Shown here: positions 2,744 through 19,006 of the stretch, one piece after another
How the letters are laid out: every line of letters begins with the position of its first letter
Numbering within the stretch: the first letter of the stretch is position 1
Assembly (NCBI GenBank): GCA_002421785.1
Contig: DIRZ01000002.1
Coordinates: 150,001 to 182,000 of the forward strand
Direction: 5' to 3'
Origin: Candidatus Saccharimonadota bacterium
GTDB taxonomy: Bacteria; Patescibacteriota; Saccharimonadia; Saccharimonadales; Saccharimonadaceae
Length of the DNA stretch: 32,000 bases
Notes under the pieces: model-generated
What the model was told of the DNA's origin: nothing
The model's input: the letters and a program-made list of their open reading frames with translations, nothing else
Databases searched by the model: none
Made by a program: the position numbers and the translations under genes

Positions 2744-2745
2744 AA

Positions 2746-3324
2746 CTAGAGCTCGTCTTCTTTGAATTTGGTGAAAAGTGATGCCTGTCGATTTGTGGAA
2801 TCTTCGATAGGGTTTTCTGTTAACGCATAACGAAGCGCTCGCCGCCAGCCGAAATTGTCATCCGCCTTGCCGGAGGTGGCGTTTGTCATAGTATAAAGCC
2901 ACCAACGCTCTTCGGCTCGCAAGCCTAGCCAGTTTTTGATAGCGATATCGATAACAGAAGGGTCGCAATCAGCCACGGCCCAAGCCATTATCATCATCTC
3001 TTTGCCGAGTAGTCGATGGACCGGTGTTTTTGATGCCAGCCATTTGCCAGCAGTGTGTTTGCTAGCTCTTAGTCGTGCGTTAAATTCAGTCGCGAGTACT
3101 GGCTTAATCTTTTCCCATTTTTGCTTCGATAAACGAACTTTTATGACATCGAAGCGTGCGTCGATCTTTTGCGTGCCATCTTGCCACTTCGTGCGCTCGT
3201 ATATACAAACATCTTGCTTTTCACCGCGAGGAACATCCACTAGGAAGTGGATGTTTGTCTCGTCCGGTACGAAACCGAAACCGATACTTTTGGTAATTTT
3301 AGGCTTGGGACTGCTGGATTTCAT
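2746..3324 (-). CDS. small DUF3780-like middle component of the DUF499/DUF1156 cassette
   Basis: 192-aa ORF. Its ATG (3324) overlaps the upstream gene end by 26 nt, and its TAG lies 2 nt before the next ATG (2743), which indicates translational coupling. Size and position match the DUF3780 partner as I remember it. No catalytic motif seen. Confidence 0.7.
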   Translation of the reverse strand: MKSSSPKPKITKSIGFGFVPDETNIHFLVDVPRGEKQDVCIYERTKWQDGTQKIDARFDVIKVRLSKQKWEKIKPVLATEFNARLRASKHTAGKWLASKTPVHRLLGKEMMIMAWAVADCDPSVIDIAIKNWLGLRAEERWWLYTMTNATSGKADDNFGWRRALRYALTENPIEDSTNRQASLFTKFKEDEL

Positions 3325-6300
3325 TAGGATTTAGCTTTGTTATATCGATATTATTTGCGCTGGCGTACTGTTTAAACGAAACACCACTTGCAAAGTTTAA
3401 CTTACGAGTCTTTATTTCTACAGTAATATCTTCTTTACTTGCGGATAAGACGGCGCGCATCTGGTCAATAAGCTTGCGCACATCCTCTCCGGTAAACTCA
3501 ACACCTTCACCGATAGACATGACAACGAATTTGTCTGGGTCGTTACCGATCTTAAGAGCGATAGATGTAAGTTCTGCCTTGGTATGGCCTTGCTCTAGCT
3601 CCTCGATCAGCTGATATGTCTGCGTGTTATCAGACGTCTGAAGGCTCTGTGTGAACGCAACGGGCTGATGATCACCTACTTCGACGGTTCCGTCGGTTTG
3701 TGGTACAGCCAACTCTTCGATGTCGCCGTAGTCATCACCTACATGCGCCACGACTCGTACATAGCGCGCACCTTCTGGGATGGATATCGGAGAATCATAT
3801 ATACCTCCGTTATCTCGAGGGTCGCTGGAATCTGTGGTGTAACGTAACTCTGCTTCATTGTTCACCTTTAGGGTAAGCTGAAGGCCGCTGCCGTGGTTTG
3901 AAAATTCATGGTTAATGACGAAAGGTGTGTTGTAGCGTACTACTTCGCCCGTCTCATGGGCACCTGTTGAGTCGACACAAAGGAAGTAATTGGTACGGTT
4001 CTTTACTTTGAAAAACTCAGTGTTTTCTACCAGCTTTGAAGCTTCAGAAACATTTTCATTTGTATCTACATACACTTTGTCGCCATACTTTGGCGAAATC
4101 TTTAGAATAGTCTCACCGCTGTCACGGTCATAATCGCGCTTCAATATTTCTACACCCGTAGATTCCTTGGCGAATGGGCCTTTTTCGATGAAGCCGCCGT
4201 TGTCACGCCACTGACCTTCAGCGATCGCACGTGACTTAAGCGCATCCAACGCCTTAGGGTGGTGCCATGACCAGCTACAGTTACGTGCAGCGTTTCCAAG
4301 GAGATCGCCCCACTGGATTTCTTGTTGGGCTGGACCAAAGAGCTTTGCCTCTACCTTTTCTCGGAAGTTCACTGATTCGATATCTTCTGTAAACTTCATC
4401 TCGTCTTTTAGAACACTCGTGATCTGCTCTTCTGCGTTGAATGAGTTGTTCGCAAACTGGAAGTTAATGTCGGCTCGGTCTAGACGATCACCAGAGCCGT
4501 CGTTACGAGGGAAATAAACAGTCGTAAATGTCTCGCGCACTGCAGAGGTAATATTCATGTAGATTTTGTCGCGCTTGTCGATAGCATTTTTAAACTGAGG
4601 GTCATTTTCGCTGACACGATTGTCTTTCATGTCTTCGATGATGACATCAATACCCTTAAGTTCTTTAAATACCGAAATCATATTGTTCCAGGTCTGACGT
4701 TCACCACTAAGGAACAGGAAGCGGTTTTTAAATGGATGCTGCTGCCAGTAATCACGCAGTTCAGCGCTTAGATCTGTCGTGAGCGTACTTGGCTCTGTGA
4801 CGATGAGCGTGACTTTTTTCGATTCGACATTTATTTCATCGACTCCTGGGAAAATCTGTACGCTCTGGTAGCAGTCGTTTCGAACTGGCTTAAGTTCATT
4901 CTCTAGGTACTTTTTTGCCTCTTTACGTGCTGCTTCATCATCGTAGCTTCCCACGAGTTCTGTTAAGCGGGCGTTAAGATTTTGGTTTTGCTGGAAGAAG
5001 TGGCGGTTATCTTTGTCGATCGCCATATACCACGCCTGGCTAACCAATAATTCGAGTGATGGCTTGATCTGCTGAACATCTACTCCTGGATGGACCAAGG
5101 TTGCCGTTATTTCGCTTTGGTTTAGACCCTTTAGGCTGCCGTGTGTAGTCGCCAATGATGCCACTAGAATTAGTCGTGCCATATCCTGTGTTACAGTGCC
5201 GCCAGTCTGCTTATCGTTCAGTTGGGCTACGGATGTGCCGTCCTGAGTATATATATCATGTCGAATGGCGGGAGTAAGAGAGCCATTGAGTTGTTCGACT
5301 TCGGTCAAAAGCCTAGTGTTGCTCAGATTAATATCCTGAGGAGTAATAAGAGTAATTTCGTTTTTATTATCATGAATGTCTTTAACCATGGTTCGAACGA
5401 GCCGAATCACTCCACGAGTCTGCTGGAAACCTGAGTTGTCTTTGAATCGGTTATACAGATCGATGAAAGATGGATGGAATGGGTAGCTTTCAACTATACG
5501 CGTATACTCTACATTCGGATCAACGTTTGTCAGGCCCATCTGCTTTGCTTCATTGAGTACAGACTTATAGCTCTCTGCTGTTGCACGGATCTGGTCTTCG
5601 GCAGGCAGACTTTCAAATAGTTTCTTTTTAAGAATCTCAACCAGCTCGTTTGACTGATTTCGAACAGGAGTTAGATTCAACGAGACTCGAGTTAGCTCAC
5701 TTCTGATATTGTCGAGCACTTCTTTAATAATGTCGGTGCCTTCGCTCCAGCTGCCAGCAAGGTCAGCTATAACGATCATGACGTTATTCAGCTCGTTGTC
5801 TTTGATGGCGTTGAAGAGGTTTGCTAATGCTGTCGCCGTGACTACACTAAGGTCTGAATTGCCTACCGATACTGATTTGGCATTCACCAAGTACGGAGGA
5901 AGTTCGTCAAGCAGAATTAGCGTTGGTTGCCCCTTAAGCATGTTCACCCATGCGTCATTGCCTGGAGCTTTGAACTGAGGATTATAGTAGCTCTTAAATT
6001 CTTCTTCTTTGCCAAGCTGTTTCGCGATTTCGCCCCAAACTCCTAGCTCTGTATCAACTTGACGACCCGAAAACCCGACGACCTTAACTTCTCCATCAAA
6101 ATGGTTGGCACCTAAAAATCTTTCTCTGTATTCAGGGTGCTTTGCCAATAGCCCCAAAGTGATCATACTGTGCGTTTTACCGCCACCCATGTTCTGTGTC
6201 AGTTTAATGATGCCGTGATCATCTTTGCCCTCGAAGCGGCCAAATGCTGTCGTTAGCAACTGGTTGATGCCATCAGTAAAGTAACTTTCAGAAAAGAAAC

Positions 6301-6412
6301 GCTCAGGATCGATTTGCCCTTTAAACAGATTATTAATCTCGAGAACATCATCTTTCGAAGAATCGTCCAGTACGGATGGTCTTAGTTTCACTGCTTGGAG
6401 GAGGTTGGGCAT
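3299..6412 (-). CDS. DUF499-type large P-loop ATPase (1037 aa)
   Basis: Long ORF with Walker A NMGGGKTHSM and Walker-B-like PTLILLDELPPY near the N-terminus. First gene of a tightly packed three-gene minus-strand operon. Confidence 0.85.
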   Translation of the reverse strand: MPNLLQAVKLRPSVLDDSSKDDVLEINNLFKGQIDPERFFSESYFTDGINQLLTTAFGRFEGKDDHGIIKLTQNMGGGKTHSMITLGLLAKHPEYRERFLGANHFDGEVKVVGFSGRQVDTELGVWGEIAKQLGKEEEFKSYYNPQFKAPGNDAWVNMLKGQPTLILLDELPPYLVNAKSVSVGNSDLSVVTATALANLFNAIKDNELNNVMIVIADLAGSWSEGTDIIKEVLDNIRSELTRVSLNLTPVRNQSNELVEILKKKLFESLPAEDQIRATAESYKSVLNEAKQMGLTNVDPNVEYTRIVESYPFHPSFIDLYNRFKDNSGFQQTRGVIRLVRTMVKDIHDNKNEITLITPQDINLSNTRLLTEVEQLNGSLTPAIRHDIYTQDGTSVAQLNDKQTGGTVTQDMARLILVASLATTHGSLKGLNQSEITATLVHPGVDVQQIKPSLELLVSQAWYMAIDKDNRHFFQQNQNLNARLTELVGSYDDEAARKEAKKYLENELKPVRNDCYQSVQIFPGVDEINVESKKVTLIVTEPSTLTTDLSAELRDYWQQHPFKNRFLFLSGERQTWNNMISVFKELKGIDVIIEDMKDNRVSENDPQFKNAIDKRDKIYMNITSAVRETFTTVYFPRNDGSGDRLDRADINFQFANNSFNAEEQITSVLKDEMKFTEDIESVNFREKVEAKLFGPAQQEIQWGDLLGNAARNCSWSWHHPKALDALKSRAIAEGQWRDNGGFIEKGPFAKESTGVEILKRDYDRDSGETILKISPKYGDKVYVDTNENVSEASKLVENTEFFKVKNRTNYFLCVDSTGAHETGEVVRYNTPFVINHEFSNHGSGLQLTLKVNNEAELRYTTDSSDPRDNGGIYDSPISIPEGARYVRVVAHVGDDYGDIEELAVPQTDGTVEVGDHQPVAFTQSLQTSDNTQTYQLIEELEQGHTKAELTSIALKIGNDPDKFVVMSIGEGVEFTGEDVRKLIDQMRAVLSASKEDITVEIKTRKLNFASGVSFKQYASANNIDITKLNPNEIQQSQA

Positions 6413-6520
6413 CTACATTATCCTTGCTGTTTAATGTTAATCAATAAAATTACTCCGATTGTAATCAGACTATTACACAACATTATACCTTAATTACCTC
6501 AAGAAATCACCCTGAGAGTG

Positions 6521-6550
6521 TCGAGAATTGTCAAGAATTGACGATAATTG
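6521..6550. repeat. three tandem 10-bp repeats: tcgaGAATTG / tcaaGAATTG / acgaTAATTG
   Basis: Read directly in the 378-nt divergent intergenic region between the DUF499 operon and the ParB-methylase gene. The 10-bp period equals one helical turn. Confidence 0.6.
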
Positions 6551-6790
6551 AAAATGGTTTTTTAATATTGACTCTCCCCATCGCACAATGCTATTCTTGA
6601 TATAGCCACACGGCTAGCACCTTACCGGATCACAAGTCCCAATTCATTCAAAGCTATATATAGCATAGAAAGAGTTGATAGAAAGGAGGCGAACCTTTTA
6701 TCTCAACTGAGGTAAATTGTTTGTGCTTCCGCTTCTAACAACTTAATCTATGCTCTTTTTATTTGGAGAGCATGAGAAAGGAAGCGTCTT

Positions 6791-8161
6791 ATGACCTCCA
6801 CAACCTCACAGCTGCAGGTGCAGCACATTAATATCAACGAACTGAAAGCAAGCGAGTTCAACCCGCGCACTTGGTCGGATCACCAGCTGGCGAAGCTCCG
6901 TGAAAGTATCGAGAAGTTCGGCGTCGTTGACCCGCTCATCGTCAATACTCACCCGTCGCGCAAGAATATCGTGATCGGTGGCAATATGCGGCTCCAGGTG
7001 CTTCAGGAAATGAAATACACTGATGTGCCTGTGGTCGAGCTTAATCTCACTGAACGCAAAGAGTGCGAGCTCAACCTCCGACTTAATAAAACCGGGGGCG
7101 ACTGGGACTACGCACTACTAAAAGAGTTCGATGAAGACCTGCTGGCCGATGTCGGCTTCGAGTCCGAAGAGCTCGATGACGTATTCGCTATCGAGGATAC
7201 CGAAGAAAAGGCTTCGTTCGACCTAAAAAAGGAGTTGAATAAGCTCGACATCAAGAAAATCACCGTTCAAAAGGGCGACGTCTACCAACTAGGCGACTCG
7301 CGTCTAATGTGCGGCGACTCCACTATCGAAGCCGACTTCGACAAGCTGATGAACGGTGAAAAAGCCGATATGTGCATGACTGACGAACCATATATCCTCG
7401 ACTACCTACATGCCAAGCGCGGCGGCAAACCAGTTAAAGGCTTCGGCGCCAAGCGTGACCGCATCTATCTCGAAACTGAAACTTTACCAGATAACTTCAT
7501 CGAACTGTGGATGGCAAATGTCGCCAAGCACGCCAAACCAGACTTCAGTATTATCTCGTACGAAAACTGGAAAAACCTGCGCGAAATGTGGAATGCCATG
7601 GAAAAGTACTGGAAGGTCAAGAATATGATTGTCTGGCACTTACCAAATCGACATCAGGGTTTTTCATCAAAGTATAAGTTCTTCTCCAAACACGACATTG
7701 CTGTCGTTGGCGGCTCGGGTGATGTGCCATACAACACCGACGAAGAAGAGGGTCCGTTACAGGAAATGTACGAAACTGCCCTATTCGCCATCTCTGGCAA
7801 ACCGCAGTGGGAAGGCTACGAAAAAGGCAAGAAATACATGCCGACCGACTTCATCGAGTTCAATGCCGATGACCTCAAAGGCTCCGGCCAGGGTGTAGTA
7901 TTCGGTACAAAGCCACTAGACATCCTCATTCCCTATATCAAGGTCCTAACGCGACGTGGTGACCTCGTAGTGGAGCCTTTCGGCGGGTCGGGCAGTACAC
8001 TCATCGCATCGATCAAACTTAATCGTCGCTGCTACATCATGGAAAAGGTACCGACCTATGCCGAAGTGATCATGCGGCGCTGGGAAAAAGAAACCGGCTT
8101 GAAGCGCAAGCTGATCGTGCGAGGTAGTGATGACGAAGTTCAGCCGAGCGTACAGGAGTAA
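6791..8161 (+). CDS. ParB-like N-terminal domain fused to a beta-class DNA methyltransferase (copy 1)
   Basis: RBS GAAAGGAAG precedes the ATG. N-terminus has a ParB-type segment (NPRTWSD..FGVVDPLIV..IVIGGNMRLQ). Motif IV variant MTDEPY comes before motif I VVEPFGGSGSTLIA, which is the beta-class order. By eye roughly 60% identical to the 20225-21562 product. Confidence 0.85.
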   Translation: MTSTTSQLQVQHININELKASEFNPRTWSDHQLAKLRESIEKFGVVDPLIVNTHPSRKNIVIGGNMRLQVLQEMKYTDVPVVELNLTERKECELNLRLNKTGGDWDYALLKEFDEDLLADVGFESEELDDVFAIEDTEEKASFDLKKELNKLDIKKITVQKGDVYQLGDSRLMCGDSTIEADFDKLMNGEKADMCMTDEPYILDYLHAKRGGKPVKGFGAKRDRIYLETETLPDNFIELWMANVAKHAKPDFSIISYENWKNLREMWNAMEKYWKVKNMIVWHLPNRHQGFSSKYKFFSKHDIAVVGGSGDVPYNTDEEEGPLQEMYETALFAISGKPQWEGYEKGKKYMPTDFIEFNADDLKGSGQGVVFGTKPLDILIPYIKVLTRRGDLVVEPFGGSGSTLIASIKLNRRCYIMEKVPTYAEVIMRRWEKETGLKRKLIVRGSDDEVQPSVQE

Positions 8162-8741
8162 GATCCTCGGTCTCCTCCGAGAGAATCCGAATCTTCAGCG
8201 TGCCTGCAAAAAAGCAGGCATCGCTCGAAGTACTCTCTACCGCTGGATGGAGGAAAACATCGACTTTCGCGATGATGTGCGTGACGCACAAGAAATTGGC
8301 CAGGACACCCTGAATGATTACGTTGAGGCTAAGCTGATGGAAAACATCCAAAACAACACGCAGCGCTCGATTGAATTTTACCTGCGCCATAACAGCCCGA
8401 AGTACGCCTCAACTCGTGTCGAAACCGAGTACTTCGATAAGCGCGGTATTGGGCGTATTACGCACTTGCCTATTGGCATCGACCCGATGTATTACAGCGG
8501 CGAAATCGACATACTGGACAAGCTCGCCGAACGAATGGAGTTGCGTCGCGCCATGAACGAAGCTAAGTTCGACACCGAAGATTACGACCCAAACAGGCCC
8601 ATTCGTCCCGAAAGATTAGGCAAAATGTTCGCCGAAGAGTTCTATCAGGCGTTTCCTAAAGCCAAAGATATAATCGACGATCAACTATACGAATACGATA
8701 AGAAAAAGCAGCAAGAAGGTCCCGAGCAGGATGATCGCTAG
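8127..8741 (+). CDS. small HTH protein resembling a phage small terminase or regulator (copy 1)
   Basis: GTG 8127 / ATG 8130 start overlaps the methylase 3' end. HTH-like NLQRACKKAGIARSTLYRWMEENIDFRDDVRDAQ. Homologous to the 21555-22007 product. Confidence 0.7.
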   Translation: MMTKFSRAYRSKILGLLRENPNLQRACKKAGIARSTLYRWMEENIDFRDDVRDAQEIGQDTLNDYVEAKLMENIQNNTQRSIEFYLRHNSPKYASTRVETEYFDKRGIGRITHLPIGIDPMYYSGEIDILDKLAERMELRRAMNEAKFDTEDYDPNRPIRPERLGKMFAEEFYQAFPKAKDIIDDQLYEYDKKKQQEGPEQDDR

Positions 8742-8767
8742 ACTTATGCCCTGCTTGGCGGTATGTT
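8739..8767 (+). promoter_or_regulatory. conserved promoter-like motif TAGACT-N17-TATGTT (site 1)
   Basis: CTAGACTT..GCGGTATGTTGTCTTGC. The same ~45-bp pattern recurs at 10049 and 22800. Lies upstream of the 8793 ORF. Confidence 0.45.
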
Positions 8768-8792
8768 GTCTTGCTGAAGAAAGGAATCACAG

Positions 8793-9095
8793 ATGAAAAT
8801 GACAGATGATGCGATGAAGATGCGAAGTGGCACCAGCCTCCGGGGCTACATTAATGCCCACTATAGCCAGTTGGTCGAGCTATTCGGCGAACCGTACGCC
8901 GATGACAGTAATTACAAGACGGACGCCGAATGGATCATCCCTACACCGCACGGCCCAGCCACAATCTACAATTATAAGAACGGTTTCTCGTACCTGGGAC
9001 TTAGCGGATTAAGGCTTGAAGAAATGGACGAGTGGCACGTCGGCGGCAAAAATAGCAAAAGTTATGAGTGGGTCTTACAGCTATTAAGCAGCTAG
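8793..9095 (+). CDS. hypothetical 100-aa protein (phage-type small protein)
   Basis: RBS AAAGGAA precedes the ATG. No motif I can assign. Occupies the variable slot of module 1. Confidence 0.6.
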   Translation: MKMTDDAMKMRSGTSLRGYINAHYSQLVELFGEPYADDSNYKTDAEWIIPTPHGPATIYNYKNGFSYLGLSGLRLEEMDEWHVGGKNSKSYEWVLQLLSS

Positions 9096-9120
9096 TTGTA
9101 ATCTGTACTATAATCAGTTC

Positions 9121-10044
9121 ATGATTGAACTTAGCAAACTTATACAAATTCCCCTTCGTGAAGTCTGGAAGCATGAAGCATTGGATTTTACGCAGTGGCT
9201 TGCGCTGCCAGCTAATATCGAACTACTTAGCGATACTATTGGCGTAAATATCACCGAGACACAGACAGAAGTTGGGGTTGGTCAGTTCCATGTAGATATA
9301 CTCGCTGAAGATGAACATGGCCGGAAAATTGTGATAGAAAATCAACTCGAGCCAACCAACCACGATCACCTTGGGAAAATTATCACCTACGCATCAGGTT
9401 TGCAGGCTGAAGTGGTGGTGTGGATCGTTGAGCGTGCACGCGAAGAACATGAGCAGGCGATAAACTGGCTGAACGAGAATACCACCGAAGACGCAAACTT
9501 CTTCTTGCTACAGATCGAGGCATGGAAAATTGGAGATTCACGACCAGCACCAAGATTCAATATCATTGCAAAACCAAACGATTGGGCTAAAACTGTCAAA
9601 CAGAGTGCGACTGGCAATACTGTAAGCGATTTAAAGCTCAAACAACAAGACTTCTTCGAGCTACTCCGTAAGTATGGTGAGGATAATGCCCGGGTCGTAC
9701 GTAGCTGGCGAAAAACCCAGCCACAACACTGGTACGATATCAGTATCGGAACGTCTCAGGCCCATTTAAGCGCTACCATTAATTCTCGCGACCTGCTCGT
9801 TGGCATGGAAGTATATATCTCTAACAATAAAGAGCTATTCCACAAGCTACTCACCAACAAAGACGCTATTGAGTCACAGCTAGGTATGCAGCTTGATTGG
9901 CAAGAACTGCCCGACAAAAAGGCTAGCCGGATCATTGCTACAAAACAAGGCAACTTCTTGGATGAAATCGAATCACAAGAGCTAATTCGATGGCTTGTTG
10001 AGACAGCTGATGGCTTCTCTAGAGTTTTTCCAAAATATCTCTAA
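9121..10044 (+). CDS. DUF4268-like protein with N-terminal PD-(D/E)xK (NucS-like) nuclease fold
   Basis: N-terminus FHVDILAEDEHGRKIVIENQLEPTNHDHLGKIITY looks like a D..E.Q/K restriction-endonuclease-fold core. Overall layout matches my memory of DUF4268 proteins. Confidence 0.65.
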   Translation: MIELSKLIQIPLREVWKHEALDFTQWLALPANIELLSDTIGVNITETQTEVGVGQFHVDILAEDEHGRKIVIENQLEPTNHDHLGKIITYASGLQAEVVVWIVERAREEHEQAINWLNENTTEDANFFLLQIEAWKIGDSRPAPRFNIIAKPNDWAKTVKQSATGNTVSDLKLKQQDFFELLRKYGEDNARVVRSWRKTQPQHWYDISIGTSQAHLSATINSRDLLVGMEVYISNNKELFHKLLTNKDAIESQLGMQLDWQELPDKKASRIIATKQGNFLDEIESQELIRWLVETADGFSRVFPKYL

Positions 10045-10049
10045 TTCAC

Positions 10050-10078
10050 TAGACTTTACCTCTGTTACGCGGTATGTT
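10050..10078 (+). promoter_or_regulatory. conserved promoter-like motif TAGACT-N17-TATGTT (site 2, recombinase 1)
   Basis: CTAGACTTtacctctgttacGCGGTATGTTGTTGCTTGC. The -10-like box ends 10 nt before ATG 10089, implying a near-leaderless mRNA. Confidence 0.45.
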
Positions 10079-10088
10079 GTTGCTTGCA

Positions 10089-11378
10089 ATGGAAGCACAA
10101 GTACCTCAACTAAAATACTGTCTCTACGCACGAAAATCATCAGAGTCCGATGAACGTCAGGCGATGAGCATTGACTCACAGCTAGCCGAGATGCGAGCCC
10201 TCGCAGTAAACGAAGGATTAAACGTCGTCTGCGAACTACAAGAAAGCCACTCGGCGAAAGATTCAGGAAAGCGCCCCGTGTATAACCAAATGCTCGCAGG
10301 AATAGCTAATGATGAATATAACGCCGTACTCACCTGGGCCCCAGACCGCCTCAGCCGAAACGCTGGCGACTTAGGCTCAGTCGTAGACTTAATGGATCAA
10401 CATAAGCTGCTCCACATACGCACCTACTCGCAAACGTTCACCAACAGCCCGAATGAAAAGTTCTTACTCATGATCCTGTGCTCGCAGGCAAAACTCGAGA
10501 ACGACAACAAAAGCATCAATGTGAAACGCGGCATCCGAACAAAATGTGAAATGGGCTGGCGACCTGGTACCGCTCCACTCGGCTATATAAACAGATCGTT
10601 CGGCGGAGTAACCGACATCATCCCCGACCCAGATCGTTCTGATATCATCACCGAAATGTTTCATAAGGCAGCTCAGGGCTGGAGCGGCAGGAGGCTAAAG
10701 GCCTGGCTTGATGAGCAAGGCATTACGACCAGAAGTGGACGAACCGTGCCAGTGAGCAGTGTCCTCGCGATGCTTATAAACCCCTTCTACTACGGTGAGT
10801 TCCAGTACCCCGAAGGTCCAGGAAATCCATGGTACAAAGGAGCGCATAAACCACTCATTTCCAAGGAGTTGTGGGATGAAGTACAGCAGACACGTGGAGT
10901 AAATAAAGGCGTGTGGGGATCGAAGCAGTTTGCCTTCCGCGGTCTACTTAAATGCGGTCGATGCGGCGCCGAGGTAACGGCACAGGAAAAGATAAAGCTA
11001 CTCAAGAAAAAAGGTGTGCACAAAAGGTTCGTCTACTATAACTGCACCCGCAAAATTGATCCAAATTGTAAAGAGAAATATATAAACGAAGATGTATTAT
11101 GTGAGCTACTCGAACCGCTAATTGAAAAACAGGTCAAGAAGATCCGCGTAACCCCTAAACTCCAAGCGAAGATAGACCGTCACTACGCCGTCGCTCAAAA
11201 TATTCTGCGCCAATACGGAGTCGAACGGCCGCCCGCAACGCCACTCGTTGAATACTCGAGATATGTACTGCGGAGCAGTAGCGAAACAGAGAAAACCGCC
11301 TTCGCCAATGGGATCATGAATAAGATAGCCGTAAGGAATGGTGAATTAAAAATCGCCCATGAACAGACCGATCCGTAG
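10089..11378 (+). CDS. large serine recombinase (copy 1)
   Basis: Catalytic region KYCLYARKSSESDERQAMSIDSQ, then LTWAPDRLSRN, a recombinase domain and a zinc ribbon (CGRCGAE..YYNCTRK..C). I chose ATG 10089 over ATG 10074 by homology with copy 2, which starts MLDNNTQSLKYCLYARKSS. Confidence 0.9.
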   Translation: MEAQVPQLKYCLYARKSSESDERQAMSIDSQLAEMRALAVNEGLNVVCELQESHSAKDSGKRPVYNQMLAGIANDEYNAVLTWAPDRLSRNAGDLGSVVDLMDQHKLLHIRTYSQTFTNSPNEKFLLMILCSQAKLENDNKSINVKRGIRTKCEMGWRPGTAPLGYINRSFGGVTDIIPDPDRSDIITEMFHKAAQGWSGRRLKAWLDEQGITTRSGRTVPVSSVLAMLINPFYYGEFQYPEGPGNPWYKGAHKPLISKELWDEVQQTRGVNKGVWGSKQFAFRGLLKCGRCGAEVTAQEKIKLLKKKGVHKRFVYYNCTRKIDPNCKEKYINEDVLCELLEPLIEKQVKKIRVTPKLQAKIDRHYAVAQNILRQYGVERPPATPLVEYSRYVLRSSSETEKTAFANGIMNKIAVRNGELKIAHEQTDP

Positions 11379-11385
11379 CAGACGA

Positions 11386-12339
11386 CTAATTTGAGTCGAT
11401 TCCGTAGAAGGACTTCAGCTTCTTTGCGACACGCGGCGCCAGCTTTCGGGGTATAAACTTAAGCACATTATTAGCCTTATCAATTCTTGAAGGTGGAAGG
11501 TTATTGAACCCCGCGTCAATAAGTTTTTGCTCATAACCGAAAGGCATCGCGATCAATGTCTCAAAAGGTGTGCCAGCATCGTAACCACCAATACACCTAA
11601 ATCCTATAACACCATACCTCTTACGAACTATGAGAGTTACGTCGATCGGCGTCCCATGACCGAATGAGGCACTGCTCTTTATGACAGTAGAGCTCTTATA
11701 ATATGATCTATAGTGTTTTATCAGCGAACGGATCACGACATGCAGTGCAACCGCACGATTAATTAAATCATTTGTTCTTTGCAATTCGTATATTGTCGGG
11801 TATCCGGCATCATCAGCAATAGTAACCCCCGACCTGCCAGTACTCTTAATTGCATAGTCACCATGTGCGATTGCATTTCTAAATCTTGCATCGAAAGCCG
11901 ATTCGAAAGGTTGATATACATTTTCAAAATCCGTTCCCCGCGCAATCGACTTGAGTCTATCGATTTTTTGCTCAACTTTTAGATTTGCAAACTTCTTATT
12001 TCTATGGTTTGCAATTATATAATCTTCGCCCTTCACCGTGTTAACTAGGTTAGCGATAATTTCATAGTGCTCAGAACTCTCAATTAGATGGAGGTAGGTC
12101 CACAAGTTAATGTTAAATCCCAATGATCCCCTGAATTTGCGCTGTTGCTTATAAATCTCTTCGAAAACATTCTGCGTATTCTCGAACGGGTCCCATCCAT
12201 CATCACTCATCCCTCGCATCGCGAGTATCGTCATAATTACGTTAAATTCCGACACATCGAAGGCTTTCTTGAAAAGAGGTTCAAAAACCTCCATGTATTC
12301 CTCGACAAATTGAGAGTAGTTATTTGTTGCCTGAGCCAT
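11386..12339 (-). CDS. HEPN-domain (Abi-like) putative RNase
   Basis: Contains FDARFRNAIAHGDY, the R-x4-H HEPN signature. Convergent with the recombinase. Start is either ATG 12339 or upstream TTG 12363, and neither has a clear RBS. Confidence 0.65.
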   Translation of the reverse strand: MAQATNNYSQFVEEYMEVFEPLFKKAFDVSEFNVIMTILAMRGMSDDGWDPFENTQNVFEEIYKQQRKFRGSLGFNINLWTYLHLIESSEHYEIIANLVNTVKGEDYIIANHRNKKFANLKVEQKIDRLKSIARGTDFENVYQPFESAFDARFRNAIAHGDYAIKSTGRSGVTIADDAGYPTIYELQRTNDLINRAVALHVVIRSLIKHYRSYYKSSTVIKSSASFGHGTPIDVTLIVRKRYGVIGFRCIGGYDAGTPFETLIAMPFGYEQKLIDAGFNNLPPSRIDKANNVLKFIPRKLAPRVAKKLKSFYGIDSN

Positions 12340-12363
12340 ATAGAATATCTTATCACTGGTCAA

Positions 12364-12600
12364 GGAACTCGGTCAGCATTTCGGCTGTCCAGTTGCCCTA
12401 GGAGAAACCAGTCAATTTCAGGACTAAACATCAAGGGTGGACACGAAAAAACCGCCCTTTCGGACGGTTCCATCGGTTTTGTACCTTTTGGTGACATTTG
12501 GTACTTTTGTCTGACTCAAGGGGTAAATCTGACTTTTGGTCAGGGAACCCGGTCTGGGTATTTACCTGCTGAGTCTGGCTCCCCGTACAGGTCACGAACT
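12364..12600 (-). repeat. tRNA-Asn-linked non-coding module, copy 1 (most diverged; degenerate tRNA 3'-like end at 12576-12599)
   Basis: Shares blocks with 24720-24977 and 28741-29040: the hairpin GAACCGCCCTTTCGGACGGTTCC, gttttgtaccttt, and ctgctgagtctggctcc followed by ..cgaac. Confidence 0.7.
12444..12470 (-). terminator. intrinsic-terminator-like hairpin in module copy 1
   Basis: Minus strand reads AACCGTCC-GAAA-GGGCGGTT followed by TTTTCG. GNRA loop, and the stem contains one G.U pair. Confidence 0.5.
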
Positions 12601-12615
12601 ATATCGAACAGAGAA

Positions 12616-13284
12616 CTACTCATCAACAGTCTCAAGTTGACCGTCGATAAGATACTCCCAAATTACTCCATAATTTATGACTTCAGATCCTTGACCCGTC
12701 TTAAGATTAGGCACCTCAAGAGGTAGCTCCCCACCACCACTCCAGTAGTGCGTCCATATCTGCTCATTAGTTTCTGGGCTAAAACTTGCCGCATTACCAA
12801 TTTTCCACATTTGAGAAATTACCTGCATATTAACTTTAACTACACGCGCCGGAGAAGCAGTGTTAAGTTTAAATTTTACAAGATCATTCATGTCAAAATT
12901 CCATTTATCTGCCGCTTCTTTCGCATCAGATAGACCTCCAAAGGCATATAGACAACCAAAGCGAGAGGGATATTTTTTCGTCTCTTCATGACCCCTTCTG
13001 TATAGCTCTGCATTGTAGTCAACCGTATATTCGCTGACCTCCCTAAGACTGAAACTACTAGGTGATTGCATATCGACATCTGGATTTGGTATAAATGGCA
13101 GATAGTCTACCGATCCTGATATGAATTTCATACGTTTATCAATATCAAAGAATGTATTCGCGATTGAAGCAGACGTTAAGGTTTTAGTTAATCTATAGTT
13201 CCATTTAAGAGTCCACATCCTATCATGGTGAAGGAATATATAAAAAATATCAGGTACATCTTCGTTGGTATTCAGAGTCTTCAT
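12616..13284 (-). CDS. hypothetical 222-aa protein (last gene of the macrodomain operon)
   Basis: Clean ORF in an AT-rich block, 38 nt downstream of the previous gene. No recognisable motif. Confidence 0.6.
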   Translation of the reverse strand: MKTLNTNEDVPDIFYIFLHHDRMWTLKWNYRLTKTLTSASIANTFFDIDKRMKFISGSVDYLPFIPNPDVDMQSPSSFSLREVSEYTVDYNAELYRRGHEETKKYPSRFGCLYAFGGLSDAKEAADKWNFDMNDLVKFKLNTASPARVVKVNMQVISQMWKIGNAASFSPETNEQIWTHYWSGGGELPLEVPNLKTGQGSEVINYGVIWEYLIDGQLETVDE

Positions 13285-13322
13285 ACATTTACATTATAGA
13301 TATAGATGCTACAAATGAGACA

Positions 13323-15095
13323 CTACTTATCGTCGTCCAGATTAAGACCGAAGCTAGTGCCTAGGACAGCCCCGGCGCGCCTCAGGTATGCTATAGTTTC
13401 GTCATGGACTCCATCCCGTGGAGGTGATTTTATAAGAACCTCCTTCCCCTCCTCGTCGAGCACTCCTGAATCACCATACTTCTCTAATAGCTTAATGACC
13501 ATATCTTGGTAAGTTGCGCCTTTATCCATTAACATAGGGTCTGTTTTTGGCATTTTATCGTGGCAGTATGCTGTTTGTGCCCCCATCCTCAAGACCGATC
13601 TTAATGTCTCTTTGTGCCAGTTAACCTCAATATCTTCTCCGAACATTGAAGAAGTTATATCTTCGGGGTCATAACTCTCAAATGACTCCTGTGTTAGTTT
13701 CAAAAAGTCTTCAATTTTCAATAAAGAAAGGCAGGTATTACGAGAGTTGCCCACCTTGATAGCAGCATTTAGCAATGTTTCATGTTGGTGCATTAAACTA
13801 AAGAACTGATTTTCATAAACATGCTTATCAGCTTCAGTTAACGTACGGTAGTCGATATTTTCCTTTAGAGCTCGAGCGATGACGTACATTGCATCAAGAA
13901 AGATTCTTATGTCTTTCATCTGTGTTTCTTCATGAGAATCAAACTTTTGGCCTATTCCCCATAGGCAATTTGTTAATGCACTTAGTGGAGTTTCATAGGT
14001 ACCACTGAACATCAGTGGGGTTTGCTCGAGCCCAACCATATCACCTATTAAGCGTTCGCCAAGCCATGACACATCACGAATCACATCGTCTATACGCTCC
14101 TGGCTCATTTCATCTTCCACATCAAACAGTCGTTCACCAATGTTTCGGTATATTCCCATCAGCTTCTTGAATGTTTCCTGATCCTTCTCTCGAAAAACGT
14201 CTCCTATATCTTTCATTAAATCTAGGATGCTACTGAGCATATTTAGTTTATTATTAGTTACGACATCATTGGCAACTCTCTCAACAGAATCGAGAATGTG
14301 AAACAGTGCGGTATGTAGCCCTTGTGAGCTTGCCAGCTCTATACTGTTTCTTATTACATCGCAGTAATAACTAAGGAACTGCGTACTGGAAGGATCTTTT
14401 AAATAAATGGCTTCTAAAGCCATAAGTGAACGTATTAGAAGCGTAGTATCGGACCGTTGGACGGCCTGCATAATAAAAGACTCTATAGGTGCCAGCGGGT
14501 TTTCCGCACCCCTATTGGTCTTTCGCATCTCGGCATGCTGTACAAGCCTCTTCTTATAATTTGTTAGGCCATCTTGAATGATTTGTTTTTCATCTTCTGA
14601 TGGTTCTCCTCCTAGAATCATAGAGGTTGACACTACGGTATGCTCTTCAGGTGGACGACCGTAACGGTATTTGAGGTATTCGCTAAAGGCTGCTTGATCA
14701 TAGTTATCAGTATGGAAGTGCAGTGCCTCAGATGGCACAAGATAACGCGTCTCCTTATATATAAACCAGCCTAATAGAATTATTGAGAGAGGGATTGTTA
14801 GAAGTATAATCAACGCAACAATGGGATTTTCGAGAATATAATTTATGCAATAGTTTTCATTCGGGAAAAAATCGTGACTTGGAAAAGCTAGCATGAGACT
14901 CGCTCCTCCAGTCACCAACAGACCGCCGACAAAGACAGACGCCATTGCGATAAAGGCAGGAGCTTCGAATAGTTTCCGGCTATTCTTATAAATTAAAAAC
15001 GACTGCAATATTTGAGCGATTGCAATGATAGCAGCCACACCGATACCAACAATCGTCACTTGAATGGAGAATAATGTGTTGTAAAAATCAAGCAT
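13323..15095 (-). CDS. 590-aa membrane protein (about 4 N-terminal TM helices plus a large helical soluble domain)
   Basis: N-terminal ~120 aa has hydrophobic stretches (VTIVGIGVAAIIAIAQIL, FIAMASVFVGGLLVTGGASLML, IVALIILLTIPLSIILLGWFIY). The rest is charged and helical. No known motif. Confidence 0.65.
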   Translation of the reverse strand: MLDFYNTLFSIQVTIVGIGVAAIIAIAQILQSFLIYKNSRKLFEAPAFIAMASVFVGGLLVTGGASLMLAFPSHDFFPNENYCINYILENPIVALIILLTIPLSIILLGWFIYKETRYLVPSEALHFHTDNYDQAAFSEYLKYRYGRPPEEHTVVSTSMILGGEPSEDEKQIIQDGLTNYKKRLVQHAEMRKTNRGAENPLAPIESFIMQAVQRSDTTLLIRSLMALEAIYLKDPSSTQFLSYYCDVIRNSIELASSQGLHTALFHILDSVERVANDVVTNNKLNMLSSILDLMKDIGDVFREKDQETFKKLMGIYRNIGERLFDVEDEMSQERIDDVIRDVSWLGERLIGDMVGLEQTPLMFSGTYETPLSALTNCLWGIGQKFDSHEETQMKDIRIFLDAMYVIARALKENIDYRTLTEADKHVYENQFFSLMHQHETLLNAAIKVGNSRNTCLSLLKIEDFLKLTQESFESYDPEDITSSMFGEDIEVNWHKETLRSVLRMGAQTAYCHDKMPKTDPMLMDKGATYQDMVIKLLEKYGDSGVLDEEGKEVLIKSPPRDGVHDETIAYLRRAGAVLGTSFGLNLDDDK

Positions 15096-15142
15096 TTATT
15101 CTATTAGTATACCGTGTGACAGGCATGTAATTACAGCATAAG

Positions 15143-15667
15143 CTATATAGATGAGACTAAGTGCACGTTTTCGCAAATCACCTGGTCTCCTATGGTGTAT
15201 ACAAAGAAACTGATATTGAGTTTTGACTCTGGATTATCTTCAAAGTATTCGTTAATAGCTTCAAATGCTAAAGCCGCCGCTTCCTTTTTCGGGTAGCGAT
15301 GTATTCCTGCTGAGAGCAGTGGAAATGCAATAGATACAATGTTGAGCTCCTCGGCTCTACGGAGCGACTCCCAGTAACAGCTTTTGAGAATGTCGGCTTC
15401 ATTTCCATGATGATCGCCATAGATAGGGGTTGCAGTATGAACTATGTATTTAGCTGATAATCTAAAGCCTGGAGTCACTACCGCATCGCCGAACGCACAG
15501 TAATTAATCTCATCACATACTTTAGTAAGCTCTTCATCTCCGGCCGCTTCAAAGATTTGCCCGCACAATCCACCACCACCCTTAAGTGCAATATTCGCAG
15601 GATTTACGATAGCATCACCGTCAAAATCTAATATGTCTCCTTGAATGATTTTTATATGCTGATTCAT
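15143..15667 (-). CDS. stand-alone macrodomain protein (MacroD/YmdB-like ADP-ribose hydrolase)
   Basis: IIQGDILDFDGDAIVNPANIALKGGGGLCGQIFEAAG and IVHTATPIY are classic macrodomain motifs. Confidence 0.85.
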   Translation of the reverse strand: MNQHIKIIQGDILDFDGDAIVNPANIALKGGGGLCGQIFEAAGDEELTKVCDEINYCAFGDAVVTPGFRLSAKYIVHTATPIYGDHHGNEADILKSCYWESLRRAEELNIVSIAFPLLSAGIHRYPKKEAAALAFEAINEYFEDNPESKLNISFFVYTIGDQVICENVHLVSSI

Positions 15668-15701
15668 AGTGCTTGCTACCTTAGCTTACATTCACAAAAT
15701 G

Positions 15702-16895
15702 TCATAGTATTATGTCGGTTCCGTCGGGTGCTTTAAGCTTCCACGGACCACTATCACTCTTTGGCGTATCTGGTTTCTTCATTTTCCCAGCCTTTATATC
15801 CCGCTCTACAAGCTTTTTCAGATCTTCTTCGCGCTCGTAGGCTCGCAGGCGTCCATTTAAATACCCGAGTCGATACGAAATACCATTACTCATGAGTCGC
15901 CAGTTGGTATCCTGAAGCGCTTTTTCTACTGTTTTCTTAAGGGTCTTTTCACTATCTCGGTCGTCACGATTACTCTTTCCATCAAGGCAGTTAAATCCCA
16001 CGAATACGTCTTTACCCATTTCTGGCTTATCTAAACTGAATTCGATATAACCGGCCTTTTCAAGCGCAGGAGCAAGTATAGTATTCAACTCTGCGATCTT
16101 TGGCTTTTTCATTTCTTTCATGGCATCGTAAAGATATTTATTGTCCTCCTTCTCTTTGAACTCTTTACCAAGTCTAGCCATTTCTTGGAAATCGTGGCGC
16201 ATTTTGAATAGGCGGTCGCGGAACTCCGTATCATGCAGGCAATAATGCGCACGATCCTTGTCAAAATCAGGATCGGGTTTTTTCTCCTTGCTCATTAAGT
16301 CCATTTTATCCTTGAAGCTATGTTTACATGATGCGCACGTATATGTGATCGTGATAGCTTTTTTGGTTTTCGTTGTTTTATGTGTTTCTTCCGACTGGCA
16401 TTTTGGACATACAGTTGGTTTAACTTTCCACACCGTGCAATCTTCCCAAAAGGCGCTGTTCTTATCGCAATGAGGACAGCGCAACATGAATAACACTTCT
16501 TCTGAATCATCAATTTCGTATGTTTCACCGCGATGCATCAACGATTTGTCGATAATTCGGAGTCCCTGTTTGCCACAATGATGACACGAAGGCTCTTCTG
16601 CAAGTCGTGCTGATGATATCTGCTCGTCCTTTGCCCGATCCCTAGCAATCCATTCCTGGATTTTGCTGTCTCGTTTTTCATAGCGATCCAGCAGCTCATT
16701 GCCCACGGTTTCCATATAGAAAACATTCAGGAGAAAGGCGTTGCCAGGTTTATCAACCTTTTCTCCTTTAGGGAGTTTGCTTTCGAATTCAGAGTAAAAG
16801 TTATCGTAATGGCTCATACCGCGACGAGCAGACTCAACGGTTAGTCGATCATAAAGATTCTCGTAGTGCTGGCGTTCTTTGAGATGAGTGTACAT
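15702..16895 (-). CDS. 397-aa protein with four CxxC pairs (two predicted zinc ribbons)
   Basis: CHHCGKQG..CPHCDKNS..CPKCQSE..CASCKHS in the central region. RBS AGAGGG precedes ATG 16895. First gene after the tRNA pair. Confidence 0.65.
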   Translation of the reverse strand: MYTHLKERQHYENLYDRLTVESARRGMSHYDNFYSEFESKLPKGEKVDKPGNAFLLNVFYMETVGNELLDRYEKRDSKIQEWIARDRAKDEQISSARLAEEPSCHHCGKQGLRIIDKSLMHRGETYEIDDSEEVLFMLRCPHCDKNSAFWEDCTVWKVKPTVCPKCQSEETHKTTKTKKAITITYTCASCKHSFKDKMDLMSKEKKPDPDFDKDRAHYCLHDTEFRDRLFKMRHDFQEMARLGKEFKEKEDNKYLYDAMKEMKKPKIAELNTILAPALEKAGYIEFSLDKPEMGKDVFVGFNCLDGKSNRDDRDSEKTLKKTVEKALQDTNWRLMSNGISYRLGYLNGRLRAYEREEDLKKLVERDIKAGKMKKPDTPKSDSGPWKLKAPDGTDIIL

Positions 16896-16933
16896 GAATC
16901 CCTCTTGTTAGAAATTCGGACATAATCCGGAGC

Positions 16934-17018
16934 TCTAAGGAGGGGGATTCGAACCCCCGGAGGCTTTCACCTCGCCTGCCCCTCAGACAGGTGCCATCGA
17001 CCACTCGGCCACCCTTCC
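16934..17018 (-). tRNA. type-II tRNA-Leu(GAG) with mismatched top of the acceptor stem
   Basis: Minus strand: GGAAGGG TG GCC..GGC, anticodon arm CCTGT-CTGAGGG-GCAGG, long variable arm GAGG-TGAAAG-CCTC, T arm GGGGG-TTCGAAT-CCCCC, then TCCTTAG-A. Pairs 1:72 (G/G) and 2:71 (G/A) do not form. No encoded CCA. Confidence 0.65.
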
Positions 17019-17021
17019 TTC

Positions 17022-17136
17022 TGGTACCCAGTGCGAGATTCGAACTCGCACGCATTACTGCACGGGATTACTCAGCTCACGAACATGTTCCCGAGCTTAG
17101 GTAGTCCCGCGTGTCTACCAATTTCACCAACTGGGC
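17022..17136 (-). tRNA. type-II (Leu-like) tRNA gene with a ~30-nt hairpin-forming insertion in the anticodon loop; anticodon not assignable
   Basis: GCCCAGT TG GTG-AAATTGGTAGA-CAC G CGGGA [37 nt] TCCCG TGCAGTAATGCGT GCGAG-TTCGAAT-CTCGC ACTGGGT A CCA. Acceptor, D, variable and T arms are canonical. A TACAAT -10 box lies at 17145-17150, 8 nt upstream of the 5' end. Confidence 0.6.
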
Positions 17137-17174
17137 ATATATTTATTGTACCGCTTGTTGTAGCCATTAAAAAG

Positions 17175-18245
17175 TCAGCTGACCCCCTCTACGAATCGCA
17201 ACCGCCTAGCACCCAATGCGCTCTGCTCAGACTCGGTATACTTCGCAATCATGGTATTGATCGCCGTTCGTATAACAAAATCATTTGTACGCATGATATC
17301 GGTCTTATCAACACTATAGATTGGGGCGCTCGTTAGGTCGTCGTTGAGCAACAGCTTCCGCACTGCCTTTTGCGCCGCCGCGCTATTAGTGATGGTCACA
17401 TTCGGCAAAATCCTAATGACTTGGTCGATGCGAGATAGCACGGAGGGCCCCGCCACCAAGCACTGCATATCATTTCCGACACTCGCCGCAAAGTACGCGA
17501 GATCGACTACGACCTGCCGCCACTCCGAGTCCGGTCCGATGGTTTGCAAATCCATGGCGACCGCCTTTATATCCGGATGTCTTTGCAAAAATCGCAAGTG
17601 TTCGTCTATATCCTTTCGCCCGTGCCAAGTAATATGAGGGATTGCCGGTAATCCTGCTTCGATCATTTCTTTGTACATGATCATGCTCTTCTTTTGATTG
17701 ATTAACCTTTCGGCGTGCGGTTGATTCGCCCAGACCGAGTAGTCAGGGGGCACAATTGCATGTAGATCCAGTTTCTTGAACTCATCGATAATCCGGTGCC
17801 GCTCCGCAGCGGGCCATGCACGTTCGAGCAATGCATCATTTGCAAAACCCAACAGGATAACTTTAGTTCTCTTAGAAACCCCAAGCCGCGCATGAATGTC
17901 GGTGGCGACTTGCAATCGCTTAGCTGAAACAACGTCACTCAAACTTACAGCGACATATTTAGGAGTATATTCCCTGAATAGCTTGCCGCTGCCGTTAGGG
18001 ATAGTCGGAACATATCGCGGGAGACTGGGGTTGATCGGATTAGTAATTGCTATATCATCAAAATCAACACCGTTCACCTCGGCTAGTCGAAGAGCAAAGT
18101 CGTCAGAATCCTCCCCAATAAGGTCATACCCACGAGCGTTAATTCCTGCGGCGTTACAATGAAAATCATCATCTTCAAGCCGGTCACCAAACGGGCAATC
18201 CGATCGTCGTACATCTGTAATTTTAAGCTGCTGATGGTGTTTCAT
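17175..18245 (-). CDS. hypothetical ~356-aa protein
   Basis: Long ORF, start ATG 18245 (MKHHQQL) or GTG 18260. I cannot place it in a family. A faint TIM-barrel / transglycosylase-like impression is too weak to call. Confidence 0.6.
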   Translation of the reverse strand: MKHHQQLKITDVRRSDCPFGDRLEDDDFHCNAAGINARGYDLIGEDSDDFALRLAEVNGVDFDDIAITNPINPSLPRYVPTIPNGSGKLFREYTPKYVAVSLSDVVSAKRLQVATDIHARLGVSKRTKVILLGFANDALLERAWPAAERHRIIDEFKKLDLHAIVPPDYSVWANQPHAERLINQKKSMIMYKEMIEAGLPAIPHITWHGRKDIDEHLRFLQRHPDIKAVAMDLQTIGPDSEWRQVVVDLAYFAASVGNDMQCLVAGPSVLSRIDQVIRILPNVTITNSAAAQKAVRKLLLNDDLTSAPIYSVDKTDIMRTNDFVIRTAINTMIAKYTESEQSALGARRLRFVEGVS

Positions 18246-18636: not shown

Positions 18637-18638
18637 GG

Positions 18639-18887: not shown

Positions 18888-19006
18888 ACTAACCCCTTTC
18901 TAACGCTTATTTTTTAAACGTGACCTTCGTTCCCCTCGTCACATACAGCTAATCAATCCTTTTTGTGTTGAACAACTGCTACATTATTAGGATATTCCTT
19001 TTTCTC

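Follow-up and report, generated by a model that had tools for sequence, protein, structure and literature searches.

What are the two runs of related genes that stand in the same order within 32 kb of a Saccharibacteria genome? The window analysed here (32,000 nt, positions 150,001 to 182,000 of contig DIRZ01000002.1) comes from a Candidatus Saccharibacteria genome, a member of the Candidate Phyla Radiation (CPR), and its positions 6791-12600 hold the conserved core and the tRNA-proximal end of one element, which we call E1. We propose that E1 and its neighbours are islands of a Patescibacteria-wide family driven by large serine recombinases (LSRs), that they are stacked at a tRNA-Asn gene, and that a ParB-methylase gene and a small terminase gene (terS) give them a packaging head and transfer of the satellite type; we put the probability of this reading at about 0.72. 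The units of the array are E1, E2 and E3, Rec1 and Rec2 being the LSRs of E1 and E2, and their order is tRNA-Asn(GTT)-E3-E2-E1, with E1 outermost, at the single tRNA-Asn(GTT) gene of the genome. Contigs carrying related loci are coded L001-L169, and the 80 relatives considered below are genome contigs with an LSR match.

The first run reads on the plus strand and comprises the ParB-methylase (6791-8161), a helix-turn-helix (HTH) protein (8127-8741), a 100-aa protein (8793-9095), a DUF4268 protein (9121-10044) and the LSR (10074-11378); it ends with a convergent gene for a 325-aa protein on the minus strand (11386-12363). An earlier note on this DNA had claimed that the same backbone genes recur in the same order at a second locus, with unrelated genes in the slots between them. 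This is what we found: the second block spans 20183-24976 and holds the ParB-methylase (20183-21562), the HTH protein (21555-22007), a membrane protein (22159-22797), the LSR (22758-24125) and a convergent 191-aa protein (24118-24693). The ParB_N+N6_N4_Mtase proteins are 63% identical over 443 aa, the HTH proteins 49% over 92 aa and the LSRs 72% over 428 aa. According to BLASTP the slot genes are unrelated, both the 100-aa and DUF4268 proteins versus the membrane protein and the 325-aa versus the 191-aa protein.

Over their first 163 codons the two LSRs share 94.5% of their residues and 78.5% of their nucleotides, so that the near identity of their N termini, combined with many synonymous differences, was correctly noticed. 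Since the synonymous divergence is saturated (pS 0.80) and the nonsynonymous divergence low (pN 0.05), the backbone copies diverged long ago under purifying selection, as had also been proposed. One could imagine that copy 2 arose from copy 1 by a recent segmental duplication, or that the repeat is an assembly artefact; the shared gene order, and nothing more, speaks for this. Against it, pS is saturated (0.80-0.85), the DNA is 77-78% identical even where the proteins are 94% identical, and the layout recurs in independent assemblies from different sources. We consider this explanation already refuted.

The target of the array is the tRNA-Asn(GTT) gene at 29007-29315 on the minus strand. Its exon 1 (29282-29315) and exon 2 (29007-29047) are separated by a 234-nt group I intron in the anticodon loop (29048-29281; Rfam RF00028, 75 bits), and ARAGORN calls tRNA-Asn(GTT) when exon 1 (29315-29282) is joined to exon 2 (29047-29007). 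The tRNA-Asn gene was intronless in 23 of the 23 related loci where one was found; PMC8172020 makes only a brief mention of introns in CPR tRNAs. Reading on the minus strand from the tRNA 3' exon is a non-coding unit of about 190 nt (28850-29040), which occurs twice more in the window, at 24786-24976 and 12358-12555. A core, GGAGCCAGA, is common to all junctions; its consensus CGGAGCCAGA corresponds to the final 8 nt of the tRNA followed by GA and stands at 29014 (29005-29014), 24950 and 12583, and a search for a further core between these junctions found none. The units delimited in this way are E3 (24951-29004, minus strand), 4 kb long and without recombinase, E2 (12584-24940, plus strand), complete and 12.4 kb long, and E1, which extends leftwards from 12573, measures about 18 kb if all DNA up to FtsK is included, and has its far end outside the window. 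Beyond the tRNA-Asn gene the window continues with Blac and LexA homologues, as in relatives.

In the tRNA sense, a conserved P' unit lies to the right of each core (28785-29004 in E3, 24721-24940 in E2 and, on the minus strand, 12354-12573 in E1), and to the left stands the intact tRNA, a P-a arm or a P-b arm, giving three junction types that recur among the relatives. The P-a arm reads gGTTCrTGACCnGTAhG after a CTGTT remnant and is found at the far end of LSR-bearing elements. The P-b arm reads GGTGGTAG, followed after 6-7 nt by a good T arm, and is found at the far end of small recombinase-less units, which are tRNA-proximal to the LSR-bearing element wherever both ends are visible. At the E2/E1 junction the 10-nt core GGGAGCCAGA (12574-12583, minus strand), the putative crossover region, adjoins the P-a arm of E2 (12584-12611, minus strand), a decayed tRNA-Asn 3' half of the form CTGTT..GTTCGTGACCTGTACG; its tRNA-derived parts, namely the CTGTT remnant of the anticodon loop, a T-arm-like GTTCGTGACC and GGAGCCA, align with the intact tRNA junctions. 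The next core and the P-b arm of E3 together occupy 24941-24990 on the minus strand (core 24941-24950; GGTGGTA..GGTTCGAATCCAGTCGC), with a T arm and a D-loop remnant. The tRNA-like end that had been assigned to the first copy is therefore real as a decayed tRNA-Asn 3' half, but it is not a tRNA gene (ARAGORN, and Rfam at 12330-12640 with E<=1) and it belongs to E2; a further copy of the end sequence, at 28785-29014, adjoins the real, intron-split tRNA-Asn. ARAGORN and Rfam ruled out a tmRNA or a complete tRNA at 24.9 and 12.6 kb. By eye, the left arms and the P' box showed no convincing dyad symmetry with each other.

Comparison with relatives, which the earlier note had advised as a way to the exact ends, delimited the element of L001: it measures 12.1 kb from its tRNA junction (12511) to a P-a junction (353), beyond which the DNA is unrelated, and its P-a arm is as in E2. 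Cassettes of 1.1-3.7 kb without recombinase, with one or a few genes and a P-b arm, were observed between the tRNA-Asn gene and the LSR element in L008 (17168-20079), L011 (12888-13970) and L013 (12474-16214), and L008 has two of them in a row.

About 220 nt of the P' unit are conserved over 28 aligned junctions, and the same box (AGCAG, about 10 nt, GACCgGGTTCCnnGACC) opens and closes the unit, GACCgGGTTCCnnGACC being located at 12538-12555 and 12358-12375 in E1. The 3' part of the unit resembles another decayed tRNA-Asn half. RNAalifold and a pair count over 17 sequences gave a helix H1 that starts at the GA of the core (12562-12575 with 12513-12526 in E1) and a hairpin H2 (12444-12475) followed by a T run. 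Standard pairs fill 98.5% of the cells, versus 86.1% after shuffling (0 of 500 shuffles reach the observed value) and 38-54% with the partners slid; eight pairs are changed on both sides, and G-U pairs, which are frequent, are confined to the tRNA sense. One P' copy was flagged as terminator-like, and Rfam searches of the P' unit and of the tRNA-like end returned chance-level matches only. From this covariation we infer that the P' unit is a tRNA trailer and terminator that the element supplies in replacement of the native flank. Alternatively, it could be a small RNA transcribed from the tRNA promoter.

We then asked how widespread such elements are. The LSRs of the 80 loci are 45-98% identical (best 98%), and nearly all of these loci come from metagenome-assembled genomes (MAGs) of Saccharibacteria or other Patescibacteria. 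A cyanobacterial origin of the window, which the intron-bearing tRNA and VKOR had brought to mind, was rejected on these matches. In about 47 of the 57 loci scanned, the LSR gene is closely followed by an intact tRNA on the minus strand; where this is tRNA-Asn, it is intronless, comes after 0.2-8.8 kb and precedes homologues of Blac and LexA. Within the LSR clade of at least 59% identity the tRNA is nearly always tRNA-Asn, a few closer ones standing next to tRNA-Gln or tRNA-Met; in the clades of 45-55% identity it is mostly tRNA-Ser, with two cases of tRNA-Gln and one of tRNA-Tyr. Many MAGs labelled 'uncultured Pseudomonadales' or 'Gammaproteobacteria' (L035-L062, several loci) carry LSRs 46-55% identical, with a module of ParB-methylase, HTH protein and large terminase (TerL) next to tRNA-Ser, like Woesebacteria loci; either errors of binning or labelling have placed CPR contigs there, or the family extends across phyla.

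Clustering of 1422 open reading frames (ORFs) from the 80 loci and the window yielded as recurrent families the LSR, ParB-methylase, HTH protein and TerL, HsdM/HsdS, PLD-SNF2 helicases, MmeI-like enzymes, XRE regulators, ABC/AbiEii-like ATPases, cation efflux proteins and a few unknowns, and no recurrent portal, capsid or tail cluster. The cargo comprises the candidate defence system PDC-S11, a DUF499/DUF3780/DUF1156 system, type I and IIG restriction-modification (R-M) systems, PLD-SNF2 helicases and metal resistance. Small islands with a conserved backbone and swappable cargo, stacking at one locus and ending in tRNA-derived sequence, had been suggested from the window, and the junction census agrees with this picture. 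The elements integrate at the 3' end of a tRNA, form tandem arrays and leave partial tRNAs. Moreover, the block varies: the number of units at this tRNA-Asn ranges among relatives from one to two or more, and their cargo differs. The L001 element matches the DNA of E1 at 87% identity over 6467-9071 and at 94% over 10045-12582, while the LexA next to it has only 48% amino-acid identity. Likewise, cargo of the L012 element is 90% identical to the E3 ATPase, while Blac is 33-44% identical. These values show transfer of the elements between distant hosts.

The recombinases are intact enzymes rather than remnants. Rec1 is composed of Resolvase, Recombinase and Zn_ribbon_recom domains; in both LSR copies the catalytic domain matches PF00239 (E 5e-20), and PF07508 and PF13408 score over the cutoff C-terminal to it. 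The true start of Rec1 is probably the ATG at 10089. Its best solved relative is the SPbeta LSR SprA/YokA (PDB 9dxh, E 2e-8), with which the RD and ZD domains align; the catalytic Ser of SprA is matched in the alignment by Ser22 (numbered on the ORF) within YARKSS, and pN/pS is low.

Are these units then independently decayed prophages, immobile at a tRNA hot spot, that owe their common order to descent from similar phages? Their module order is as in temperate phages, the distal junction of E1 is missing, E3 has no recombinase and structural genes are absent, all of which would fit. However, the minimal layout is present in dozens of genomes with no remnant of a structural gene, strong purifying selection acts on the LSR and the methylase, an almost identical copy of E1 is found in a distant host background, and the slots hold intact defence operons. 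We therefore find this origin improbable, and return to mobile LSR islands.

The case for satellite-type transfer comes from the first two backbone genes, since a ParB-methylase and a small terminase are the head of a phage packaging operon. The ParB-methylase of E1 joins a ParB_N domain (ParB-CTPase fold) to an N6/N4 DNA methyltransferase (phrog_498, E 3e-82). The HTH protein of E1 matches Sf6_terminase in Pfam (E 2.4e-8, 34.4 bits versus a cutoff of 27) and phrog_1482 (E 6e-11), and that of copy 2 has a small-terminase match in PHROG only (E 3.5e-5). The resemblance to a small terminase, speculative when first pointed out, gains weight from the relatives: among the 80 loci, whose recombinase and ParB-methylase neighbourhoods were compared as the earlier note had recommended, the backbone recurs, with the ParB-methylase in 39, the HTH protein in 34 and TerL directly after the HTH protein in 27. 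TerL in these relatives is a protein of about 484-507 aa (phrog_38, E 8e-87 and 6e-72). Three IMG/VR contigs (L164, L166 and L167) have the order ParB-methylase, HTH, TerL, 100-aa protein, (DUF4268), LSR, and E1 has the same order minus TerL, 51 nt separating the HTH gene from the next gene. Sister elements are classed as viral in IMG/VR. Phage contigs often carry ParB-methylase fusions (593 confirmed stretches), and one phage-like contig carries ParB-methylase, TerS and TerL, followed later by a tape-measure protein; a 2025 preprint describes the fusion as enriched in phages and prophages, its role being unknown. As in satellites, an island of 10-18 kb combines an LSR and a TerS-like HTH protein in both elements, with XRE and M78 in E2 only. 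Because no family member has capsid genes and relatives keep TerL, packaging into the capsids of a helper phage is the likeliest means of transfer, with the methylase shielding the DNA from restriction; to this specific route we give somewhat less than an even chance.

Several observations weigh against our proposal. No helper phage is known for these elements. Neither an excised circle nor an empty site nor an encapsidated copy was recovered, and a scan of metagenome contigs with GGAGCCAGACTAGACACCC for an empty site or far junction of the L001 type returned two occupied junctions, one chance match and no empty site. A distal junction of E1, that is, a second core or a distal arm, was found neither in the window nor in the 7 kb beyond it in L168 (the source contig, same sequence), up to FtsK; this junction may be missing or decayed, and E1 may be unable to excise alone. 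The E2/E1 junction is attP-like, and building it requires attP x attL or attP x attR recombination, which is outside the canonical activity of LSRs; units of the E3 type, flanked by two attL-like sites, are a further problem for the model. In the ParB-methylase of E1, motif IV is DEPY instead of the canonical DPPY, as it is in all five close orthologues, whereas copy 2 and 20 others have DPPY, so that activity of the E1-type enzyme is uncertain as judged from this motif. E1 and E2 have no TerL (none is encoded in the window), and about half of the 80 loci are without the whole packaging module, having an LSR without ParB-methylase or HTH protein. Pfam and PHROG scans of the E1 and E2 proteins, an 82-aa DUF2188-like ORF lying outside the scan and several of the proteins being unknowns, revealed no replication module, and the P-a junction pattern had no match in IMG/VR.

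Some of these points would suit another view of the same LSR islands, in which they spread as naked DNA or in vesicles and not in capsids, the terminase and methylase being prophage leftovers or serving packaging interference. Saccharibacteria are naturally competent. The missing TerL of E1 and E2, the many loci with an LSR and no packaging genes, the lack of recognised replication, capsid or helper-sensing genes and the absence of the P-a junction from IMG/VR all favour such spread. Against it, TerS and TerL are intact in 27-34 loci from several Patescibacteria classes, always in phage order and by the ParB-methylase, and this retention is hard to explain unless the genes have a role in packaging or in packaging interference. 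We regard spread as naked DNA or in vesicles as doubtful.

Under the satellite-type reading, the LSR would join the element site to the tRNA 3' end by a crossover within or just after the core. The element site would comprise a decayed 3' half of tRNA-Asn, followed by the core and the P' unit of about 220 nt. After integration, the P' unit would replace the native region downstream of the tRNA with a structured trailer and a terminator hairpin. Repeated insertion at one site would build the array tRNA-E3-E2-E1, including recombinase-less cassettes such as E3, and conserved slot borders, for example the 32-nt box that flanks the middle slot, would help cargo to be exchanged. A helper phage would then carry the elements in its capsids.

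How does this family compare with known systems? The staphylococcal cassette chromosome (SCC, SCCmec) uses serine recombinases of the large family (CcrAB, CcrC) and inserts at the 3' end of rlmH (orfX); it forms composite tandem arrays in which recombinase-less pseudo-SCC units stand between repeated att sequences, with resistance and metal cargo, and it has no terminase/ParB-methylase module and no pseudo-tRNA arms. SCC is the closest analogue for LSR-driven arrays with recombinase-less units, the target here being a tRNA. Tandem accretion is also a feature of integrative conjugative elements and their cis-mobilizable derivatives (ICE/CIME) in Streptococcus thermophilus, where att-flanked units without recombination genes lie beside complete elements, with tyrosine integrases and conjugation. 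SPbeta, the source of the best solved LSR relative, is a full phage, unlike these elements, and integrates in the protein-coding gene spsM and not in a tRNA.

For arrays at tRNA sites, the closest described analogue is the tycheposons of Prochlorococcus (bioRxiv 10.1101/2020.12.28.424599). These are, like the present units, islands at tRNA genes of a streamlined genome in which successive integrations push older units outward, with partial tRNAs, degenerate cargo-only remnants, a backbone plus cargo and some satellite-like members with terS. In contrast, 910 of 937 tycheposons have tyrosine recombinases, and many have replication genes, while the present elements always have an LSR and no replication module was found; the ParB-methylase+TerS(+TerL) module and the covarying P' trailer are not among the tycheposon features compared here, and the host phylum differs. 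Phage-inducible chromosomal islands and related satellites (PICI/SaPI; VEIMEs, PMC9618062; P4-like) are the closest systems for a small island with a terminase gene, and resemble our elements in their size of 10-18 kb, integrase, repressor-type regulator, defence cargo and small terminase, which could redirect packaging. They differ in that no primase or replication module was found here and that relatives keep their own large terminase without capsid genes. Among the reference satellites of PMC9618062, only the PLEs have an LSR. We found no description of this element family in the literature searched, the coverage of which is incomplete.

E1 offers three slots for swappable cargo, one distal, one between the HTH and LSR genes and one between the LSR gene and the tRNA. 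The element does not begin at 6791, as first thought: a conserved non-coding leader upstream of the ParB-methylase (6471-6790, plus strand) is 88-92% identical to L001, L002 and L005, and homology with sister elements ends at 6471. The leader contains three tandem repeats of about 10 nt (TCAATTnTnG, ~6515-6545) and a 25-nt palindrome (6640-6677), which are possible pac, operator or ParB sites. Further to the left, the distal slot (1-6412, minus strand) encodes a DUF1156-like methylase (open frame 1-2745, running off the window), DUF3780 (2746-3324) and a DUF499 ATPase (3299-6412), for which PADLOC gave DUF499 at E 2e-193, DUF3780 at E 2e-43 and a weaker HmaC match. Past the window, genes for a PLD/SNF2 helicase and a DUF2779 protein follow in L168, then small genes and FtsK, so that the distal operon has four genes: DUF499, DUF3780, DUF1156 methylase and PLD-SNF2 helicase (window 1-6412 and L168 10582-16195). 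Since no distal junction of E1 was found, the operon is assigned to E1 only by its position, which matches that of the R-M slot of L001, where a different R-M set lies between the point equivalent to 6471 and the distal arm. In L169, a JGI assembly of the same locus, the distal operon genes and the ParB-methylase are split into fragments, through either sequencing error or decay.

The middle slot holds the 100-aa protein, which has no family match and sits after TerL in sister elements, and the DUF4268 protein, which PADLOC assigns to PDC-S11 (E 4e-118); L001 has a DUF5655 protein in place of the latter. Two copies of a 32-nt promoter-like box, CTAGACTTnnnnnnnnnnnnnGCGGTATGTTGT (TAGACT-17 nt-TATGTT), stand on the plus strand at the left edge of this slot (8738-8769) and directly before the recombinase start (10049-10080), and both are also present in L001, L002, L004-L007 and L026. 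By its sequence, the box could act as promoter of the 100-aa gene and of the recombinase, and could provide homology for cassette exchange. The tRNA-proximal slot carries the 325-aa protein, which is co-directional with the tRNA and belongs to a family restricted to Patescibacteria. It had been labelled a HEPN protein, a label that profiles and folds do not support: Pfam (re-scanned up to E 0.05), PHROG and PADLOC gave no match, and an AlphaFold2 (AF2) model (pLDDT 80.7) had no Foldseek match at E<=0.001 in PDB or BFVD. The one fitting feature is an R-x4-H motif, of the HEPN type R-x4-6-H, whose R162, N163 and H167 are invariant in 22 homologues.

E2 carries, in order, genes for a 222-aa protein, a 590-aa protein, Macro, a 397-aa zinc-ribbon protein, tRNA-Leu(GAG), DUF4417, a 137-aa protein, a DUF2188-like protein, XRE, an M78 peptidase, ParB-methylase, HTH, the membrane protein, Rec2 and the 191-aa protein, and L034 has the same order from the 590-aa through the 191-aa gene. 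The tRNA-Leu(GAG) gene (16934-17018, minus strand) is the only tRNA that ARAGORN alone calls in the window; the E2-like element of L034 has no tRNA. Relatives keep the module M78-XRE followed by DUF2188-137aa-DUF4417. The AF2 model of the DUF4417 protein (17175-18260, minus strand; pLDDT 82) has its best structural matches in tRNA-guanine transglycosylases and the DNA preQ0 insertase DpdA (7ui4), with E 3e-6 to 8e-6 and TM 0.43-0.51, and the modelled protein may be a DNA base-exchange enzyme with an anti-restriction function. E3 carries metal-resistance cargo, with ArsR, a 94-aa protein, a P-type ATPase, a zinc-ribbon protein and VKOR from the tRNA-proximal to the distal end.

A Logan contig matching the window ends near 22146, just past a 28-nt inverted repeat (22016-22132) in the middle slot of E2, and the host contig of that sample stops at the tRNA, which hints at strain heterogeneity or at assembly breaks induced by repeats. 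Alternative layouts of the array were sought among contigs encoding the neighbouring LexA; most were short, and one was broken at the tRNA.

What do these islands mean for their hosts? CPR bacteria have genomes of about 1 Mb and are thought to be poor in mobile elements; according to one survey (PMC7739484), environmental TM7, the GWC2 genome among them, have no prophages, and the GWC2 genome carries a member of the family (L012). In the present genome, the stretch from tRNA-Asn to FtsK covers about 35 kb, or ~4% of a 0.81-Mb contig bearing an identical copy of an E2 protein, and all of it would be delivered cargo, namely defence, methylases and metal resistance. LSRs aimed at tRNA 3' ends are unusual, such sites being typical of tyrosine integrases, and a trailer supported by covariation shows how an island could sit harmlessly at an essential single-copy tRNA gene. 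LSRs with a short, defined core are also potential tools for site-specific integration in Saccharibacteria, which are hard to engineer. We speculate, as an unlikely but possible extension, that Patescibacteria hold a large undescribed class of helper-dependent satellites, with their own terminase (TerS, with or without TerL) and ParB-methylase but no capsid genes, LSRs retargeted to different tRNA genes, their own trailer/terminator RNA behind the essential single-copy tRNA, and recombinase-less cargo cassettes between pseudo-tRNA arms that accrete as in integron or SCC arrays, which together would form the main defence island of these ~1-Mb genomes. The family may be a main route for these epibionts to acquire and exchange immunity.

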